Positions 6,230-38,642 of a DNA stretch of 64,000 nt are shown here, piece by piece. The number at the start of each line of letters is the position of its first letter. The first letter of the stretch is position 1. This DNA is from Escherichia coli (GTDB taxonomy: Bacteria > Pseudomonadota > Gammaproteobacteria > Enterobacterales > Enterobacteriaceae): assembly GCF_024502345.1 (NCBI RefSeq), contig NZ_JALDNN010000001.1; one strand, written 5' to 3'. The translations under genes were made by a program, and so were the position numbers. A model generated the notes under the pieces. It saw only the letters and a program-made list of their open reading frames with translations. It ran no database searches and had not been told where the DNA came from.

Positions 6230-6671
6230 AGTGGACTATCGAAAATTGCAGGAACTGTTCACGCGGATCGCCATCGATAAACATATTCAGCAAAAGCTTG
6301 AACATCCTCACCACCAGCTGGTGGCTACCTACCAGTCATTAAACCGCAAGTATTCAGAATTGCTGGAGGAATACAAAATCCTTCGGCGCTGCTTCTCTGT
6401 TTCCGCTCTTGTTCCTTATACCGACGTATGGACACATAAGCCTGTTCAGTTTTATCCAGGCAAACATCCATGCGAAAAACCTGCCGACATGCTGAAACAG
6501 ATCATTAGCGCCAGCAGCAGACCGGGGGATATCGTTGCCGATTTCTTTATGGGCTCTGGTTCAACTGTGAAAGCTGCAATAGAACTTGGCCGTCGGGCGA
6601 TCGGCGTAGAACTGGAGGCAGACAGGTTTATACAGACCACCGAAGAGGTGGAAAAACTGAAAAAATCATAA
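6220..6671 (+). pseudogene. 5'-truncated N6-adenine/N4-cytosine DNA methyltransferase (C-terminal fragment only)
   Basis: Translation contains HPCEKP then DIVADFFMGSGSTVKAAIELGRRAIGVE (SAM-binding FxGxG block of beta-class MTases); no start codon and no N-terminal DPPY catalytic motif; reading frame begins at the napB joint. Confidence 0.7.
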
Positions 6672-6816
6672 CGATCACCACGCTCCCCCGTTGCTGTGGT
6701 GATCACCATCTTCAGGCACCGGGAATCATCCTTAATTTTTACTTGAACATAAGAGCCCGGTTGCCTGATCCCCTTCAATCACACACAGCGCCATCCGAAC
6801 TATCGGAGGTGAGGCT

Positions 6817-7095
6817 ATGACCAGAATGAGCACCATTTACAGCAGACTTTCATATGGATCAGGAACCACGCTTGCCGGCTGCGGTGTATCAGCGAAGGCA
6901 TATGCCGAAACAGCTAAAACAGCAAAAGAGGTGTCCTGGATGTTGGCCGACAGAATTGCAGGGTTAAGCCTGAGTGACTGGGCAATTATTGTCGGTATCG
7001 CATGCACAGTTATCACCTGTGCAGTGAACTGGTATTACAGGAAAAAGGAAAGGGAGGACCGGCTTAATGGCAATGTCACCAAAGCAGAAGAATAA
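6817..7095 (+). CDS. phage holin
   Basis: 92 aa, hydrophobic helix WAIIVGIACTVITCAVNWYY, charged C-terminus, immediately upstream of endolysin. Confidence 0.7.
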   Translation: MTRMSTIYSRLSYGSGTTLAGCGVSAKAYAETAKTAKEVSWMLADRIAGLSLSDWAIIVGIACTVITCAVNWYYRKKEREDRLNGNVTKAEE

Positions 7096-7615
7096 ACTGA
7101 GCGCAGCGGTCGTTGGGTTAATTCTTGCCGGGGCTTCCGCACCCGTGATTCTCGATCAGTTTCTGGATGAGAAAGAGGGTAACAGCACAACAGCGTACAA
7201 GGACGGCTCTGGTATATGGACCATTTGTCGTGGCGCTACGATGGTTGATGGCAAGCCAGTAGTTCAGGGCATGAAGCTGTCTGCTGAGAAATGTTCCAAG
7301 GTGAACGCCATAGAACGCGACAAGGCGCTGGCGTGGGTCGAGCGAAACATCAAGGTGCCACTGACCGAACCACAGAAAGCCGGGATCGCGTCTTTCTGCC
7401 CATATAACATCGGTCCCGGAAAATGTTTCCCATCTACGTTCTATAAGCGAATAAATGCTGGCGACCGTGAAGGTGCCTGTGAAGCGATCCGCTGGTGGAT
7501 AAAAGACGGTGGTCGCGATTGTCGTCTGACCAAAGGGCAGAAGAACGGTTGCTATGGTCAGGTTGAACGGCGAGACCAGGAAAGCGCGTTGACGTGCTGG
7601 GGGATAGACCAGTGA
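7067..7615 (+). CDS. phage endolysin, lysozyme family with N-terminal signal-anchor (SAR-type)
   Basis: 182 aa; N-terminal hydrophobic [18 protein letters not shown] followed by lysozyme-like body; position between holin and Rz. Confidence 0.8.
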
Positions 7616-8127
7616 GCCTGCGCTATCAGTTCATTGTTATTTTGTTGCTGGTGGCCGTTGCATTCTTCGCGGGTAGTGTATGGAGCAGCCGCGGTTGGGA
7701 AAAGAAGTGGGCCGAGCGTGACAGCGTAGAATCATCGCAAACAGCGAACGCACAGACCGCCGCTCGCATGATTGAACAAGGGCGTATTATTGCCCGTGAT
7801 GAGGCTGTAAAAGATGCACAAGCACAAGCCGCTAAATCCGCTGCCACTGCTGCTGGCCTGTCTGCCACTGTTAACCAGCTGCGTACCGAAGCAACAAAGC
7901 TTGCCACTCGCCTGGACGCCGCAAAGCACACCGCAGATCTTGCCACTGCCGTCAGAAGCAAAACAGCCGGAGCCGACGCCGCAGTGCTCGCCGACATGCT
8001 CGGACGCCTTGCAGAAGAAGCTCGATATTATGCTGAGCGATCTGACGAAAGCTACCGGGCAGGAATGACGTGTGAGCGCATTTACGACTCAGTGAGGCAG
8101 TCAAACAACAACAGGGTTAGAAGATGA
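7594..8127 (+). CDS. i-spanin (Rz-like); true start may be GTG at 7612
   Basis: N-terminal TM ([15 protein letters not shown]), coiled-coil Ala/Gln-rich periplasmic domain; Rz1 nested in +1 frame. Confidence 0.8.
7814..8068 (+). CDS. o-spanin (Rz1-like lipoprotein) nested inside Rz
   Basis: Signal peptide with lipobox LLTSC, proline-rich mature region; entirely embedded in Rz in another frame. Confidence 0.75.
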
Positions 8128-8354
8128 ACGCAGAAAACCTAAGTGAAGCGTATTACCTCAATAACGATATAAAAGAACTACAACTTCAGAAAAGCATACT
8201 GGAAAGTGGTGCCGGACTTGGTGTGACAATCCAGTCTACCTATCAGGATAACGCCTTTCTTGATGCCATACGCCCGCATGCAGTGGCTGAACTTGATCGC
8301 CGTATTGTGGAGAAGAAAAAAAACCTCTCCACTCTGGGTGTTACATTCTCTTAA
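8124..8354 (+). CDS. hypothetical protein, start overlaps Rz stop (ATGA)
   Basis: 76 aa ORF translationally coupled to Rz; no recognisable motif. Confidence 0.45.
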
Positions 8355-24313: not shown

Positions 24314-24592
24314 ATGGCTGAGATTGAACGCGTTAAAACCATTCCATTAACCGTAGCGCTGGATGATGCTGCGGAGAAGACCACTTATACGCAGCTGGAG
24401 CTGAAAGCACCCACGCTAAGCCAGGCTGAGCAGTTTTACGAGAAACAGGCTGCGTCAACGTCGCTCGCGGCGATGCGCCTGCTTATTGCGCTGGTTTCCG
24501 GTACGCGTGAAAGCGTACTGCAGCCGATGGATTTTCTCGACTTCCGTAAGTGTGAGGAGTATCTGCTCAGTTTTTTGACCTGGAAGCCCTGA
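24314..24592 (+). CDS. tail assembly chaperone (short form)
   Basis: 92 aa, immediately upstream of tape measure; contains slippery heptamer near 3' end. Confidence 0.7.
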   Translation: MAEIERVKTIPLTVALDDAAEKTTYTQLELKAPTLSQAEQFYEKQAASTSLAAMRLLIALVSGTRESVLQPMDFLDFRKCEEYLLSFLTWKP

Positions 24593-24741: not shown

Positions 24742-26662
24742 TTCTTTTGATTTTGAGCTGGTGGCCAGCGACCAGGTTAGCGAGGCTATAGACCGCATTA
24801 ATGAGGCTGTCCGTGACCTGGAGCCGAAGCTAGATAAAACTAAAGAAGGGCTCAAGTTAGGCGGTCAGGAAACAGCCGACGGACTGAGCGGTTTTATTTC
24901 TCGCCTCGAGAATATGTCGAAGAGCGCGCGGGATAACGTGCAGTTTATTGGCGACATGGTTCCCCCACTGAAAATGGTGGGGGAGCTCACGGGGAAGATG
25001 GGGGCGCTGGGGTTAGCCGGTGCTGCCGGCTACGGACTGAAACAGGTCGCTTATGGATTTCGGGAGGCATCCCGTCAGGCCTATAATCTTGATGTCTCGG
25101 CAAAAAATGCGGGAATGCGCGTTGACGATTTTACCCGACTTTCCGGGGCAATGCGTATTCTTGGGGCAGACAGCGAGAGCGCTAATGCATCAATAGAAGG
25201 TATTTTCAAAGCATTCAATGAGGCTGCCAGTGGTAAAAACGAGGGGGTTATGGCAGCGATGGCGCAAATTGGTGCTCAAATCCAAAAAAACAGCGATGGT
25301 TCAGTAAATACCCTTAAAACACTGGAGTCTATCGCAAAAATTTTTCCAACCTTGCGACCTGAACAGCAGAAGTCCGCCGCTGATGCACTTGGGCTGACGC
25401 CCGAATTGCTGGCGCTAATGCGTGACGGTGAGCGCATGAAAAAGCTGCTGGCGAAATCGGATGAATTTGGTCTGACTGTGGATCCGGCACTAAATCAGCA
25501 ATTGAGTGAAGTGAACGGCACTATGAATGAGCTCAGCGCATCCTGGGATGGTCTGTGGCAACGTTCAAAAAACAAGGCACTTAAGACCATTCTTTCGGAT
25601 GGTTCAGTCAAAGACGGCCTTGAAGGTGTTACCGATCTGTTCACTAATGGTGATTTTACTGGGCTGTCTCATGCTCTCGGTTTTATCAACAGCAATGATG
25701 CTGAGAAACTACGGCGCATTCAGAACGATAAGGAACTTTATAACAGCTTACCCCGCAGTGAACGTGGGCAGGTTGACGCGGGTTTCATGACTGATGCTGT
25801 AAGAAAGCGGTACGATGCGAATTACCGCGCGACCGATTCTGCGATTCAATTGCAGAATGACTTATCCGCTATCAGCCAGCCACAATCCAACGTTGCACGC
25901 GGCAATGTTCCTTACGGGGAAACAAGGAATAACGCAATTGGCTTCAGAAATAATAATCCCGGTAATTTGAGGGCTGCAGCAAACGCAACGGGTAAAAATG
26001 GCGGATTTTCTACCTTTGCGAATGATGCCGACGGAAGAGCTGCAATGGCGAGACAGCTGATGTTGTATGGTGACAGGGGGAATAATACTCTGGATGGGAT
26101 TATTCATACCTATGCTCCGCAATCAGAGAATAATACTCGTGCATATATTGATTCCGTATCAAAAAGTACTGGGTTTGGAGCGCAGCAGCGTATTAATCTC
26201 CACGATCCTGATGTGTTAAAAACACTGATGGCAGCAATGATTAAACATGAAAGCGGAGCACAGCCGTATACCGAAAATGAACTGAGCGATTCTGTCCGGA
26301 CGGCCATCATTGACGATCGGTGGAAGGGTTTACGTAGCCCGGAAGTTCTGGCTCAACAGCGATATGATATTATCTCAGGTTCGCAAACTGGAAATCGTGA
26401 CTCCAGCACTCTTAGTAACCCGAGTGATGAAACTGATATTCTCTCAGGCTCGCAGAACAGAAATCGGGAATCCATCATTCTGAGTGATACGGGTAAGAAA
26501 AGTGATGAAAGTGTACTCGGCGACAATCTGGCTAAGTCTCTTAAAGAGGCAATGTCAGAACAACCACTTAAGCTCGAAATCACAATGGTTAATGATAAGG
26601 GTGAGCGAAAAACCTATAATGCGGAAAATAATGGCAGAATAACAACGGCCATGAATTACTGA
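24734..26662 (+). CDS. tail tape measure protein
   Basis: 642 aa, helical-rich, position after chaperone pair; C-terminal imperfect tandem repeat (ISGSQTGNRDSS / LSGSQNRNRESI). Confidence 0.8.
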   Translation: MSNSFDFELVASDQVSEAIDRINEAVRDLEPKLDKTKEGLKLGGQETADGLSGFISRLENMSKSARDNVQFIGDMVPPLKMVGELTGKMGALGLAGAAGYGLKQVAYGFREASRQAYNLDVSAKNAGMRVDDFTRLSGAMRILGADSESANASIEGIFKAFNEAASGKNEGVMAAMAQIGAQIQKNSDGSVNTLKTLESIAKIFPTLRPEQQKSAADALGLTPELLALMRDGERMKKLLAKSDEFGLTVDPALNQQLSEVNGTMNELSASWDGLWQRSKNKALKTILSDGSVKDGLEGVTDLFTNGDFTGLSHALGFINSNDAEKLRRIQNDKELYNSLPRSERGQVDAGFMTDAVRKRYDANYRATDSAIQLQNDLSAISQPQSNVARGNVPYGETRNNAIGFRNNNPGNLRAAANATGKNGGFSTFANDADGRAAMARQLMLYGDRGNNTLDGIIHTYAPQSENNTRAYIDSVSKSTGFGAQQRINLHDPDVLKTLMAAMIKHESGAQPYTENELSDSVRTAIIDDRWKGLRSPEVLAQQRYDIISGSQTGNRDSSTLSNPSDETDILSGSQNRNRESIILSDTGKKSDESVLGDNLAKSLKEAMSEQPLKLEITMVNDKGERKTYNAENNGRITTAMNY

Positions 26663-26693
26663 TCACTGTCGTCATTTCGTTAAGGAAGAAGTT

Positions 26694-26942
26694 ATGAATG
26701 AAAAAGTTTTTGGAGCAAAAGCCATTTAGACTCCAAAGGTTTTTGCGCTTGTTTACCTGGTAATTGGCATTTTCCTCGTTTTTTCTGTTGTCTCAATGAA
26801 TTTCACGGCGATTACGATATCGGTGGTAAGTGCATTGCTTTTACGTGTGCTTTATGAGTTCCTAATGAACTCATTCAAGGCGACTGAGCATCTTTACAGG
26901 ATCGCCGAATCTCTTGACCGTAATGGATCCAGCGATAAATAG
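26694..26942 (+). pseudogene. small membrane protein ORF interrupted by an in-frame amber (TAG) codon at 26727-26729
   Basis: SD aaggaag then ATG; 11 codons, TAG, then the same frame stays open for 70 codons encoding a hydrophobic helix (VFALVYLVIGIFLVFSVVS...); internal ATG at 26796 has no SD. Confidence 0.5.
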
Positions 26943-26965
26943 ATAAGTCATTTCAGTGCATATGT

Positions 26966-26993
26966 AAACCGCCGACATGGCGGTTTTTTTATT
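26966..26993 (+). terminator. rho-independent terminator
   Basis: aaccgccgacatggcggtt followed by ttttttt. Confidence 0.8.
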
Positions 26994-27002
26994 TCCGGAG
27001 GC

Positions 27003-28409
27003 GTGATGCCGTCAATTATCCAGGACGCAATAACTTCTCTTTTGGGGGGAGATACCAGCGATGACTGGCAGGGGCAGTTACGGCCCAGCTCATTCAGAGG
27101 TGTGCCATTTGCAATTGTTGCTGAGGAAGGGAGCCACGGCCGACGCCAGGCGGTACATGAATATCCCTACCGTGATACAGCCTGGATAGAGGATATCGGG
27201 CGGGCAACACGGCGATTTGTTATTCGCGGTTTCTTGATCCAGAACAGCCAGGTTTACGGCGGCGGCGATGCTATCACGCAGCGCCAGTCACTGATTGAAG
27301 CCTGTGAACAAAAAGGTAGCGGTACGCTTGTCCATCCGACACTGGGCGAATTAACGGTTTCCATCCCTGAGAATGGTTTGCGTATTTCCGGTTCGATGGA
27401 GAACGGGCGAGTATTTGAATTTACCCTGATGGCAATTGAATCAGGGCTTAAAGTGTTTGCTGTCACGGGCAGTACCGTTGCAGGCGCCACGGTGAAAACC
27501 AACTATCTGAAACTGGTCAGCACTGCTGTGCTGAGCACGATTGCCAGAGTTAAGAGTGAAATCCGCGGTGTCACACAGGCTATAAACACCATCAGAGGCA
27601 CGGTCACGTTCTGGACTAACATGGTTGACAGCACCATCAGTCAGGTCACGAATCTCAGCAATGTCCTGAACTCCACGTTCGGGAATACCCGGTACGGACG
27701 TTACAGTAAAGGCTCTGTGGGCGGTAGTTCCTCTGCTGTTGCTGGCAAATCGTCAGTTGCTGATGTGGATGATGAGAGAGCACTGGCTGACAAGGTAACA
27801 GCCCAGTCGGTAATGGACCGGAAAAATGTTACCGACAGGTCGAGCCAGCTTAGCAGCTCCAACACACCTGATGAGTTTGTCCAGGGCGTCGCCGACGTGG
27901 TAAACGCAATTCTTAACAGCGCCGGCAGCGTTAATGACCGAATCACAGCGCTGGAAAAACTGGCTAATTCAATCAGCACGGAGTACCAGCAGTCCGACAG
28001 CAGCAAAGCGATTTCGGCGACCATGAACACGCTGATTGTTGTGCTATGTACTGGTGCCATGACCAGTGCCGCTGCGGACTCCAGACCAGCCAGTACAGAC
28101 GAGGCAGAAGAGTTAACTCAACGAGTTTCTGTGCAACTTGATACGGCGCTGGTTCTGGCTGGAGACCGCGCGGACGATGATATGTATAACGCGCTTCTCG
28201 CCGTCAGATCGGCATTCCTTTCTACGATGAGTGAGCGTGCTTCTGGTCTGAGCGAGCTTCTGCAGGTTACTACCGCTCAGCCGCTTCCGGCGCTGACGCT
28301 GGCAAACCGATTATACCAGGATGCCACCCGTGCAGATGAACTGGTACAGGAAGCGCGCGTACCGCATCCGGCGTTTATGCCGACAACCATGAAGGTACTG
28401 AGGCAATGA
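27003..28409 (+). CDS. Mu gpN-like DNA circulation protein
   Basis: 468 aa; N-terminal ..SSFRGVPFAIV.. region; gene order. Confidence 0.7.
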   Translation: MMPSIIQDAITSLLGGDTSDDWQGQLRPSSFRGVPFAIVAEEGSHGRRQAVHEYPYRDTAWIEDIGRATRRFVIRGFLIQNSQVYGGGDAITQRQSLIEACEQKGSGTLVHPTLGELTVSIPENGLRISGSMENGRVFEFTLMAIESGLKVFAVTGSTVAGATVKTNYLKLVSTAVLSTIARVKSEIRGVTQAINTIRGTVTFWTNMVDSTISQVTNLSNVLNSTFGNTRYGRYSKGSVGGSSSAVAGKSSVADVDDERALADKVTAQSVMDRKNVTDRSSQLSSSNTPDEFVQGVADVVNAILNSAGSVNDRITALEKLANSISTEYQQSDSSKAISATMNTLIVVLCTGAMTSAAADSRPASTDEAEELTQRVSVQLDTALVLAGDRADDDMYNALLAVRSAFLSTMSERASGLSELLQVTTAQPLPALTLANRLYQDATRADELVQEARVPHPAFMPTTMKVLRQ

Positions 28410-29491
28410 ATGCAGACAGCGATCTGGATGTTGTTTCTTTGACGGTCGACGGCAAAATCATCGAGGGGTGGGATTCTGTCCGGGTAACGCGGGGTATTGA
28501 GCGTTTTCCCTCTGATTTCGATCTTGGGCTAATGGATTACTTCCCTGGCAACGAAGATCGTCAACTCGTTGAAGAGGGAATGTCTTGTGAAGTTCGTATC
28601 GGAGATGATCTGACACTGACGGGATATGTTGATGACTGGGAACCCGCACTATCGCGCTCCCGCCATGAGGTCCGCGCCACGGGCAGGAGCAGATGTCAGG
28701 ACCTGGTGGATTGCTCAGCCGAGTGGCCTAACAACGTCATCAATGCCAGTAATGCGCTTGAAATTGCTTCTCGCCTGGCATCCTACTACGGCATCACCGT
28801 AACCACGGATGTTGATGAACTTGTGAAGGTACCCCAGTTCACTCTGAACTGGGGTGAGTCTCCGCAAGAAGTCATCGATCGGGTGGCCAGATGGTCTGCT
28901 CTGCTTTACTACGATCAGCCCGATGGAAACCTGTTACTGACCCGGGTGGGAACACGTCGTGCGGCAAGTGGGATAGCCGAAGGGGTAAATGTCGAGCAGG
29001 CATACTACCGCAAATCGATGGCTGACAGGTTTTCAGATTATGTCGGTGTATCAATGAGCGTTTCTCCAATTGCAGGGTATTCGCCTGATACGGCCTATGA
29101 CGCTGTGACTCTGGCAACGGCGAGAGATCCGGAGGCCGCCCGCATGCGGTACCGAAAACATATATCGATTGTGGAAAGTACCCTGATGGCTACTCAACAG
29201 GCACAAAGTGCGATCGACTGGGAAATGAACCGGCGGTACGGACGTTCAAAACAGCTCTCGGTAACCATCGATTCCTGGCGGGATAAAGACGGGAAACTGT
29301 GGGAACCAAACACATTGATCCCCGTTGATCTTCCCACCTTACGGTTGCCGAAGACTGAATTGCTACTGGCAGAAGTCACCTATATGCGCGATGACTACGG
29401 CACCCATGCACGCATGACGCTGATGCCGCCTGAAGCATTCTCCGTTCAGCCATATGCCTTCTACCAGAACCTGGCGGGATTCAATACATGA
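28406..29491 (+). CDS. Mu gpP-like tail/baseplate protein
   Basis: 361 aa; gene order. Confidence 0.7.
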   Translation: MNADSDLDVVSLTVDGKIIEGWDSVRVTRGIERFPSDFDLGLMDYFPGNEDRQLVEEGMSCEVRIGDDLTLTGYVDDWEPALSRSRHEVRATGRSRCQDLVDCSAEWPNNVINASNALEIASRLASYYGITVTTDVDELVKVPQFTLNWGESPQEVIDRVARWSALLYYDQPDGNLLLTRVGTRRAASGIAEGVNVEQAYYRKSMADRFSDYVGVSMSVSPIAGYSPDTAYDAVTLATARDPEAARMRYRKHISIVESTLMATQQAQSAIDWEMNRRYGRSKQLSVTIDSWRDKDGKLWEPNTLIPVDLPTLRLPKTELLLAEVTYMRDDYGTHARMTLMPPEAFSVQPYAFYQNLAGFNT

Positions 29492-35201: not shown

Positions 35202-35278
35202 TGGTCGGCACGAGAGGATTTGAACCTCCGACCCCCGACACCCCATGACGGTGCGCTACCAGGCTGCGCTACGTGCCG
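35202..35278 (-). tRNA. proL: tRNA-Pro
   Basis: 77 nt; reverse complement reads CGGCACGTAGCGCAGCCTGGTAGCGCACCGTCATGGGGTGTCGGGGGTCGGAGGTTCAAATCCTCTCGTGCCGACCA. Confidence 0.95.
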
Positions 35279-37541: not shown

Positions 37542-38549
37542 ATGAGTCTGGATATCAACCAGATTGCTCTGCACCAGCTTATCAAGCGTAATGAGCAGAA
37601 CCTTGAGCTGGTGTTGCGCGATTCATTGCTGGAACCGACAGAAACCGTCGTTGAGATGGTGGCAGAACTGCATCGGGTCTATAGCACCAAAAATAAAGCT
37701 TACGGCTTGTTTAGCGAAGAGAGTGAACTGGCGCAGACGCTGCGCTTACAGCGTCAGGGCGAAGAGGACTTTCTGGCATTTAGCCGCGCGGCAACCGGTC
37801 GCCTGCGTGACGAATTAGCGAAATATCCTTTTGCTGACGGTGGATTCGTGCTGTTTTGTCACTACCGTTATCTGGCGGTGGAGTATTTGCTGGTGGCAGT
37901 TCTGAGCAACCTGAGCAGTATGCGCGTTAACGAAAATCTCGACATCAACCCAACCCATTATCTTGATATCAATCATGCGGATATTGTTGCGCGTATCGAT
38001 TTAACCGAATGGGAAACCAATCCAGAGTCCACCCGCTATCTCACTTTCCTGAAAGGGCGAGTAGGGCGCAAAGTGGCGGATTTCTTTATGGATTTCCTCG
38101 GGGCCAGCGAAGGTTTAAACGCGAAAGCGCAAAACCGTGGGCTGTTGCAAGCGGTTGATGATTTCACTGCCGAAGCACAACTGGATAAAGCAGAGCGACA
38201 GAACGTGCGCCAGCAGGTTTATAGCTACTGTAATGGGCAGCTGCAGGCAGGCGAAGAGATCGAACTGGAGTCGCTGTCGAAAGAGCTGGCAGGCGTCAGC
38301 GAAGTGAGCTTCACGGAGTTTGCGGCTGAAAAAGGCTACGAACTGGAAGAGAGCTTCCCGACAGACCGTAGCACACTGCGTCAGTTGACGAAGTTTGCCG
38401 GTAGCGGCGGTGGCTTGACTATTAACTTTGATGCGATGCTGTTAGGTGAACGCATCTTCTGGGATCCAGCAACCGATACCTTGACCATTAAAGGCACGCC
38501 GCCGAATTTGCGCGACCAATTGCAGCGCCGGACGTCTGGCGGCAATTAA
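37542..38549 (+). CDS. yejK: nucleoid-associated protein YejK (NdpA)
   Basis: 335 aa [19 protein letters not shown]... Confidence 0.95.
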
Positions 38550-38568
38550 TCGGTTTTGTGTTCTGAAT

Positions 38569-38599
38569 GCCAGATGCGGCGTGAACGCCTTATCTGGCC
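38569..38599. repeat. REP element
   Basis: gccagatgcggcgtgaacgccttatctggcc. Confidence 0.6.
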
Positions 38600-38642
38600 T
38601 GCAAAAAATAGCAATACCGTAATCAGCATAATCTGCAGATAC

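Follow-up and report, generated by a model that had tools for sequence, protein, structure and literature searches.

Does a small prophage gene whose twelfth codon is an amber stop still yield a protein, and what would its intact form do? The question is raised by a 64,000-nucleotide stretch of Escherichia coli DNA, hereafter the window (contig NZ_JALDNN010000001.1 of RefSeq assembly GCF_024502345.1). Next to the tape-measure-like gene of a prophage, a short open reading frame (ORF) starts there at the ATG at 26694 behind a well-placed Shine-Dalgarno (SD) sequence, meets TAG after 11 codons and continues in the same frame for 70 more. This arrangement had been described in an earlier, sequence-only reading of the DNA and is confirmed in the sequence; that reading had explained it by a recent nonsense mutation in a small cargo gene or by expression through amber suppression or from a weak internal ATG at 26796. 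We consider it likely that 26694–26942 is an amber allele (Trp12 to stop), null or strongly hypomorphic, of an accessory gene which stands last in its unit, codes for an inner-membrane hairpin and has a proposed role in exclusion or immunity. The amber event itself is the ordinary loss of a dispensable accessory prophage gene. In non-suppressor hosts the allele would give only an 11-residue peptide and, beyond that, at most traces of the full-length protein by basal read-through or a restart product of 48 amino acids (aa).

The small gene and its twelfth codon

Is the interrupted frame a gene at all? Full-length relatives of its conceptual 82-aa product were found at 52–98% identity, the divergent homologues lying at 52–70%. 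The order tape measure, small gene, hairpin, DNA_circ_N is kept in all relatives examined, which come from Enterobacter, Citrobacter, E. coli and metagenomes, and stands within a Mu-type baseplate cluster. Between divergent lineages the ratio of non-synonymous to synonymous substitution rates (dN/dS) is 0.08–0.22, with dS saturated. Furthermore, the C-terminal motif LRVLYEFLM.SFK.TEHLYRIAE varies little or not at all among the relatives, the part from R51 to E72 being the most conserved of the family, and the SD AAGGAAG is unchanged across all close alleles in the DNA alignment. Homologues, conserved gene order and a dN/dS of 0.1–0.2 show, on the evidence of sequence comparison, that the small frame is a genuine gene under purifying selection in other lineages. 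The doubt raised in the sequence-only reading, that homologues might reveal the frame beyond the TAG to be unconserved, is thereby removed.

The same reading had recommended looking for a sense codon in homologues at the position of the TAG. Codon 12 is indeed Trp (TGG) in all but one of the relatives at 52–98% identity, the exception being Leu, and more distant members of the family have Leu, Met or Ile at this position. Within the gene, the window differs from a Trp allele (L039) solely at 26728 (A/G) and from a Tyr allele (L030) solely at 26729 (G/T); TGG, TAG and TAT thus make up a chain of single steps, the gene being otherwise the same. These alignments show Trp to be the older state at codon 12 and the allele of the window to be a TGG>TAG change. 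With Trp as the outgroup state and the one-step chain, the parsimonious order is therefore TGG > TAG > TAT, and on this order the Tyr12 allele would be a pseudo-revertant of the amber. An alternative route through Cys at codon 12 would call for an allele of which there is no instance among the sequences compared.

The gene is also one that the phage can do without, since it is absent both from the AW1.7-type E. coli prophage and from Citrobacter phage phiNP, the closest sequenced phage (N protein 68% identical). In the AW1.7-type prophage the stop codon of the tape-measure gene leads directly to the hairpin that follows the small gene in the window, and phiNP, which lacks the gene as well, has the terminator. 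The distance from tape-measure stop to hairpin is about 10–30 nt in these two, and the window has about 290 bp extra. The suggestion that this is a small cargo gene within the tail region is thus borne out by its absence from closely related prophages and phages.

Frequency of the amber codon and the alleles derived from it

How common is the stop? Intact alleles were first found via protein databases, which show ORF-bearing alleles only; sampling at the DNA level was therefore added, as alleles without an ORF are missed there. A 65-nt query covering codon 12 and the T-run was searched against 5426 complete E. coli genomes and found 21 carriers, 20 of which are identical at 100% (TAG, T5); the remaining one, NCTC9040, reads TAT. 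None of the 20 amber carriers has a RefSeq annotation under the small gene. Viral and metagenome contigs were sampled with an exact pattern having NNN at codon 12. The IMG/VR contigs (n = 30) comprised 25 with TAG, 1 with TAG and T6, 3 with TAT and 1 with TGG, and the metagenome contigs (n = 16) comprised 14 with TAG, 1 with TAG and T6 and 1 with TGG, so that TAG is present in 41 of the 46. The amber allele makes up about 88–90% of the records of this haplogroup, in genome, viral and metagenome collections that may overlap and are rich in E. coli. It predominates among public E. coli genomes as well as among viral and metagenome contigs. The carrier strains are wild isolates, with humans, frogs, mussels and water as their sources, and the tape-measure sequences found upstream of TAG fall into at least four clearly different haplotypes. 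Of the recent nonsense mutation first proposed, the nonsense mutation stands, given TGG in the relatives, and its recency does not, TAG being the majority allele on several tape-measure haplotypes; as judged from these haplotypes, the amber allele is old and predominant rather than recent or private.

Two derivatives in which the ORF is restored sit on the amber haplotype, namely TAG>TAT (Tyr12) and one additional T in the T5 run. The Tyr12 protein was found on 134 contigs (250 index blocks), and each of the Trp12 proteins on a few tens of contigs, of which the majority are from Enterobacter. The homologue with the additional T (P0006) occurs in Enterobacter cloacae, Enterobacter asburiae and metagenomes, and 19 of its contigs were read. 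Its N-terminus differs (MKKFLEQKPFRLQRFF...), and its DNA keeps the TAG in the original frame and carries the extra T in the run at 26741–26745. Translation of such a T6 allele begins at the second ATG (26698), crosses the amber region in the +1 frame and is back in the main frame before helix 1; the 81-aa product keeps both helices and the C-terminal helix. Further changes seen on amber haplotypes are T64S, one stop-loss and two that share nucleotide 26773, F27Y and F27C; not one of these is synonymous. The ORF is thus restored by 2 of about six distinct mutations. This is no more than suggestive of selection for ORF restoration, with the qualifications that the numbers are too small to tell selection from neutrality, that discovery went through protein databases and that a T-run is a natural slip site.

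As a separate observation on one of these strains, two places in E. coli NCTC9040 (L002/L033) match the small gene, and one copy has internal frame errors (P0007). The tape-measure gene at that copy is split in two, probably by long-read indel errors. Because of these probable errors the NCTC9040 assembly alone would be weak evidence; Tyr12 is nonetheless confirmed on 134 other contigs. Nucleotide 26773 is also position 2 of a −10-like hexamer. The hexamer is part of a promoter-like site on the minus strand (26796 to 26769), and this site faces an antisense ORF of 34 aa (26692–26796).

Several points weigh against a null allele of an exclusion gene. The T6 product loses the nearly invariant T13-P14-K15, and because this motif is replaced the extra T may have arisen as a neutral slip that does not rescue function. 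Both the Y12 and the T6 allele were first discovered via the protein database, where only ORF-bearing alleles appear. Nucleotide 26773 has undergone two non-synonymous changes on amber haplotypes, T>A (F27Y, at many loci) and T>G (F27C, at 3 loci), and this double change could be a sign of continued translation of the downstream frame; F27Y is also present with Trp12 (P0005), so it may instead be standing variation that has recombined. No second disabling lesion was seen in about 60 sequences, and a functional allele would look alike, the diversity being too low for missing second lesions to separate a null from a functional state. No sequence or fold similarity to gp15/YebO, to Imm or to any defence family was detected with Pfam, NCBIfam, PADLOC and Foldseek. 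Finally, no convincing promoter of the small gene's own emerged from a promoter scan of the window and of three related loci (L018, L020, L022). Promoter-like sites in the region are no commoner than expected from shuffling; one lies at 26592–26620, and the same scan found no counterpart of it upstream of the gene in the three loci.

The amber allele could still be functional, by way of a 48-aa product from the ATG at 26796 or of basal UAG read-through, which would account for the commonness of the allele and for its open downstream frame. This ATG is the first in-frame ATG, GTG or TTG after the amber and the only standard restart on the allele. The 48-aa ORF keeps the most conserved part of the family, from R51 to E72, and is reported by gene callers (P0011 and P0031), which occasionally call it from amber alleles. 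That TAG is the majority codon, followed by no later stop or frameshift in about 60 sequences, and that nucleotide 26773 has changed twice, point the same way. However, the low overall diversity makes the missing lesions uninformative, and the restart itself is poorly placed: the sequence before the ATG, TTTTTCTGTTGTCTCA, is not a ribosome-binding site and contains no purine-rich SD, Met35 is not conserved (relatives carry F, E or S) and the restart product would be without helix 1 and the ITPK motif. The spread of ORF-restoring alleles, with Y12 on 134 contigs, is also easier to grasp if the amber allele lacks function. On balance we regard a functional amber allele as unlikely.

The overlapping start codons and the T-run allow for programmed recoding, in which translation from the ATG at 26698 (...PFRLQRF) would slip by −1 at G_UUU_UUG (26740–26746) and yield an 81-aa protein of the T6 type. 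The ATGAATG overlap and the T-run are invariant in close alleles, the slip product would equal P0006, which is a real genomic allele, and the tail chaperone gene of the same prophage has a textbook T_TTT_TTG slippery site. The site here, however, is not a canonical X_XXY_YYZ heptamer and the P-site tRNA would mispair; the arrangement is not conserved in more distant homologues, the product would be without the conserved TPK motif, and Trp12 alleles have no need of a slip. We take such recoding to be very unlikely.

Expression that needs an amber-suppressor host (supE or similar) or a phage-borne suppressor tRNA, as put forward in the sequence-only reading, appears extremely unlikely. Its sole support is that the TAG is followed by A and that a single base change turns it into a Trp, Tyr or Gln codon. 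The window contains just one tRNA gene, for tRNA-Pro(GGG) (35202–35278). A supE-type glnV with CUA anticodon matches 155 of 5423 complete genomes at 100%; the 40 of these matches that were listed are all K-12-type, nearly all of them named laboratory derivatives, with no amber carrier among them, and the carriers are, as stated, wild isolates. Following the advice to check the host genotype for suppressor alleles, we examined one carrier, 2018-10-1CC, whose metT-glnV operon is wild type, with UUG anticodons in glnU and glnW and CUG anticodons in glnV and glnX. An artefact, finally, has negligible probability: a sequencing or assembly error at the TAG, which the sequence-only reading had allowed for, is ruled out by the identical TAG in 20 independent complete genomes and 41 viral and metagenome contigs, and a chance ORF by the homologues, the conserved gene order and the dN/dS.

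The intact protein, its family and its possible role

With a null or strongly hypomorphic amber allele as the preferred reading, what would the intact protein be? Hydropathy analysis gives two hydrophobic segments, at about residues 16–34 and 36–58, followed by a charged C-terminal helix. The charged tail expected from the sequence-only reading is therefore present, and the single hydrophobic helix becomes two. An AlphaFold model built on an alignment of 25 sequences has a helix at 9–34, a two-residue turn and a helix at 37–79, with a mean predicted local distance difference test score (pLDDT) of 77.5. Hydropathy and model agree, and the protein is predicted to be a helical hairpin with a charged C-terminal extension, which would be inserted in the inner membrane and have its two termini on the cytoplasmic side.

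The best Pfam match is DUF4282 (PF14110), at 22.1 bits and E = 2.3e-4 over residues 19–71 against profile positions 28–85 of 86, a score that does not reach the curated gathering cut-off of 27 bits. Precomputed DUF4282 matches exist on the relatives P0012 (faint), P0039 (weak) and P0044 (unmarked), and the UniRef name of the Tyr12 protein is 'DUF4282 domain-containing protein'. Judging from these profile scores, the protein is probably a divergent DUF4282 member that falls formally outside the family. It matches PHROG 12129 at E = 6.2e-11 (43.4 bits, residues 6–77 against profile positions 2–77 of 79). A profile search of 1.84 billion representatives returned 24 proteins at E <= 0.001, about 80 aa long, which have in common F.F..(L/M/I)ITPK, two helices and R..FE..MV.FKNNEYLRRIAEALE; the ITPK and FKNNEYLRRIAE motifs are common to them and to the window protein, and some of them bear precomputed DUF4282 matches. 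PADLOC and NCBIfam gave no match of the protein to defence or named families, and a Foldseek search of the model against PDB and BFVD gave nothing at E <= 0.001, only generic helical hairpins. No paper of the literature library that we searched mentions DUF4282. At the DNA level the 451-nt region has no near or distant match among sequenced phages; at the protein level Edwardsiella phage GF-2 is the only sequenced phage that matches, and a scan of species-representative genomes gave a single match, in Citrobacter youngae.

The genomic neighbourhood is the only functional clue. The GF-2 homologue lies directly 3′ of a tape-measure/lytic tail protein gene, and siphovirus-type tail modules have another homologue 3′ of a gene for a TMP_3 tape measure. 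Seven further viral loci were tested, and in 6 of them the long ORF on the upstream side codes for a tape measure protein (PF20155). In one large prophage group the gene is flanked by a baseplate hub gene and a gpV-like spike gene, one member precedes a J-like tip gene and one is found outside any phage context. A position always directly after the tape-measure gene is ruled out by the hub/spike group and the J-like tip locus. By gene position and by analogy with known exclusion proteins, the intact protein may serve exclusion or immunity by acting on the machinery of DNA delivery, at the tape measure or the tail tip.

Two such proteins offer themselves for comparison. HK97 gp15 is an inner-membrane moron product whose gene adjoins the tape-measure gene; it blocks genome entry in a manner that depends on the tail region of the incoming phage (Cumby et al. 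2012; reviewed in PMC3594210). It resembles the window protein in being a small inner-membrane protein encoded within the tail cluster beside the tape-measure gene, in its patchy presence among related phages and in a GC content below that of its neighbours. However, gp15 belongs to the YebO family and has no sequence relationship with the DUF4282-like window protein. Its gene lies upstream of the tape-measure gene with its own promoter and terminator, whereas the gene in the window lies downstream of it, showed no convincing promoter of its own in the scan and is followed by a backbone terminator. The T4 protein Imm (83 aa) is similar in size (about 80 aa) and in its helical membrane character, although no sequence or fold similarity is detectable. 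The T4 imm gene is an early gene and is not adjacent to gene 29. Imm is reported to bind the tape measure protein and to block genome translocation, and the model in that preprint, of a 94-residue construct, has four helices, unlike the two-helix hairpin predicted here (bioRxiv 10.64898/2026.03.06.709160). In sum, what the window protein has in common with known exclusion proteins is the pattern of a small, predicted inner-membrane protein encoded beside tail or tape-measure genes, a pattern seen here, in GF-2, in the siphovirus-type modules and in the 6 of 7 loci; homology to gp15/YebO or Imm was not found.

A class II holin would have the same size, two hydrophobic helices and charged C-terminal tail. 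On the other hand, the small gene lies in the tail module, and a separate lysozyme/lysis-protein cluster is located upstream of the terminase gene. Furthermore, it is without an in-frame dual-start motif, the second ATG being out of frame, and one would not expect a sole holin to be dispensable and in most cases knocked out, as this gene is. No match of the window protein to holin families was found in Pfam, PHROG or NCBIfam.

We tentatively, and with more doubt than confidence, extend this to a wider idea: DUF4282-like proteins would be widespread, unrecognised small inner-membrane partners of tape measure proteins, acting in immunity or superinfection exclusion. If so, a tape measure protein, whether incoming or newly made, would have its pore-forming end neutralised by them, the placing of their gene beside the tape-measure gene would parallel that of a colicin immunity gene beside the colicin gene, and the amber, Tyr12 and additional-T alleles would record repeated off/on switching under fluctuating selection. 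The locus is of use mainly for annotation, as RefSeq leaves it blank in 20 complete genomes carrying the amber. Trp12, amber, the Tyr12 pseudo-revertant, the frameshift with alternative start and absence of the gene constitute a natural allelic series on near-identical backgrounds, a ready-made genetic test of the role of the DUF4282-like protein. Unrelated tail types have family members beside their tape-measure or tail-tip genes, and this ties an uncharacterised family to genome delivery or exclusion, a field in which few small membrane effectors (gp15, Imm) are understood.

Locus layout, terminator and prophage context

The features of the small-gene region are collected in Table 1. The prophage, according to the annotation of a near-identical one, has a LexA/CI-like repressor, a Q antiterminator, a lysis cassette, lambda-like head genes and a Mu-like contractile tail, and it adjoins tRNA-Pro and yejM. 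The small gene is the last cistron of a unit of sheath, tube, chaperone and tape-measure genes. Equivalents of the upstream gene in related loci have a faint PhageMin_Tail match or an SLT domain and are placed after sheath, tube and chaperone genes, and the phiNP counterpart is annotated "tape measure protein".

Table 1. Features around the small gene (window coordinates unless a locus is named)
Feature	Position	Strand	Remarks
Tape-measure-like protein gene, 642 aa	24734..26662	+	ORF; directly 5′ of small gene
Candidate sigma-70 promoter-like site, ATGATA-17-TATAAT	26592..26620	+	3′ end of tape-measure gene; 10/12 matches
Shine-Dalgarno AAGGAAG	26682..26688	+	5 nt before ATG 26694, 9 nt before ATG 26698
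Small gene, codons 1–11, MNEKVFGAKAI	26694..26726	+	same as N-terminus of intact homologues
Second ATG	26698..26700	+	+1 frame, overlaps first ATG (ATGAATG); 21-codon ORF here; start codon of the 81-aa protein in T6 alleles
In-frame amber TAG	26727..26729	+	TGG (Trp12) in relatives; TAT (Tyr12) in derived allele
70 codons and stop 3′ of amber	26730..26942	+	both hydrophobic helices and conserved C-terminal helix LRVLYEFLM.SFKATEHLYRIAE; closes with TAG 26940–26942
T5 run	26741..26745	+	one more T (T6 alleles) fuses the second-ATG frame with the main frame beyond the amber
Internal-ATG ORF, 48 aa	26796..26942	+	second helix and C-terminal helix; no Shine-Dalgarno
Intrinsic-terminator-like hairpin AAACCGCCGACATGGCGGTTT and T-run	26966..26993	+	closes sheath-to-tape-measure unit
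DNA-circularisation (Mu N-like) protein gene	27006..28409 (start 27003/27006)	+	first gene 3′ of the hairpin; RefSeq annotation of identical sequence; PF07157 in related loci
Counterparts of hairpin and T-run	L174 2967–2990; L044 5252–5275; L017 about 3501		

The sequence-only reading had placed a strong terminator behind the gene. A hairpin with T-run is indeed there; it folds with modest stability (61 nt, −12.9 kcal/mol, z = −1.7), and it is not the gene's own, since it also follows the tape-measure gene in genomes without the small gene and so belongs to the backbone. Divergent relatives have an equivalent hairpin and T-run at the same position with different stem sequences, and one also stands after the GF-2 homologue. 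Hairpin and T-run close the sheath-to-tape-measure unit of all relatives examined, whether these have the small gene or lack it. The terminator may tune the expression of the baseplate genes or be read through under Q antitermination. The only Rfam match in the region, to AaHKsRNA82 at 26959–27019, falls on this hairpin and is sub-threshold (29.2 bits against a gathering score of 51.4 bits, E = 0.049); we take this small RNA match as due to chance.

Is the small gene then a moron in the sense of Juhala and Hendrix? Extra DNA that is absent at the same place in close relatives is what the comparison with the AW1.7-type prophage and phiNP reveals, and the base composition also fits, with a GC content of 37–41% across the gene vs 44–58% in the flanks, to which the T-rich membrane codons contribute. 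A self-contained moron with a terminator of its own is ruled out, as the terminator is part of the backbone. The gene thus has some of the hallmarks of a moron, not all.

Upstream, the tail assembly chaperone gene (92 aa, Phage_TAC_7; 24314–24592) contains a canonical slippery heptamer, T_TTT_TTG, at 24571–24577. A −1 shift there opens a frame to 24741, just beyond the start codon of the tape-measure gene, and this extension is reported as a separate 44-aa ORF by some gene callers. The site looks like a conserved programmed frameshift of the G/GT type.

The tape-measure gene comes in no fewer than two sizes (642 and 619 aa). Its 3′ end has several haplotypes, which are 4–9% apart over the last 1.5 kb, and the small gene and the N gene are nearly invariant; because the upstream haplotypes vary and the downstream genes hardly do, a recombination boundary lies near the tape-measure stop codon. 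Further downstream, in the gp44/P-like baseplate gene, position 28692 of the window is G (Arg96, AGA), whereas all 31 other loci compared have A (Lys96, AAA); by this comparison the G is a single-nucleotide polymorphism private to the strain of the window.

Finally, the prophage of ECONIH4 (L049), near-identical to that of the window, has RefSeq pseudogenes at 6277–8213 (a frameshifted DNA cytosine methyltransferase) and 38374–38613 (a hypothetical gene, close to the tRNA-Pro end, that is broken by an internal stop). Its segment 35234–37963, corresponding to about 32.3–35 kb of the window, contains tail fibre and fibre-assembly genes in both orientations beside a recombinase-family gene, a layout which suggests an invertible host-range switch similar to the G segment of Mu.

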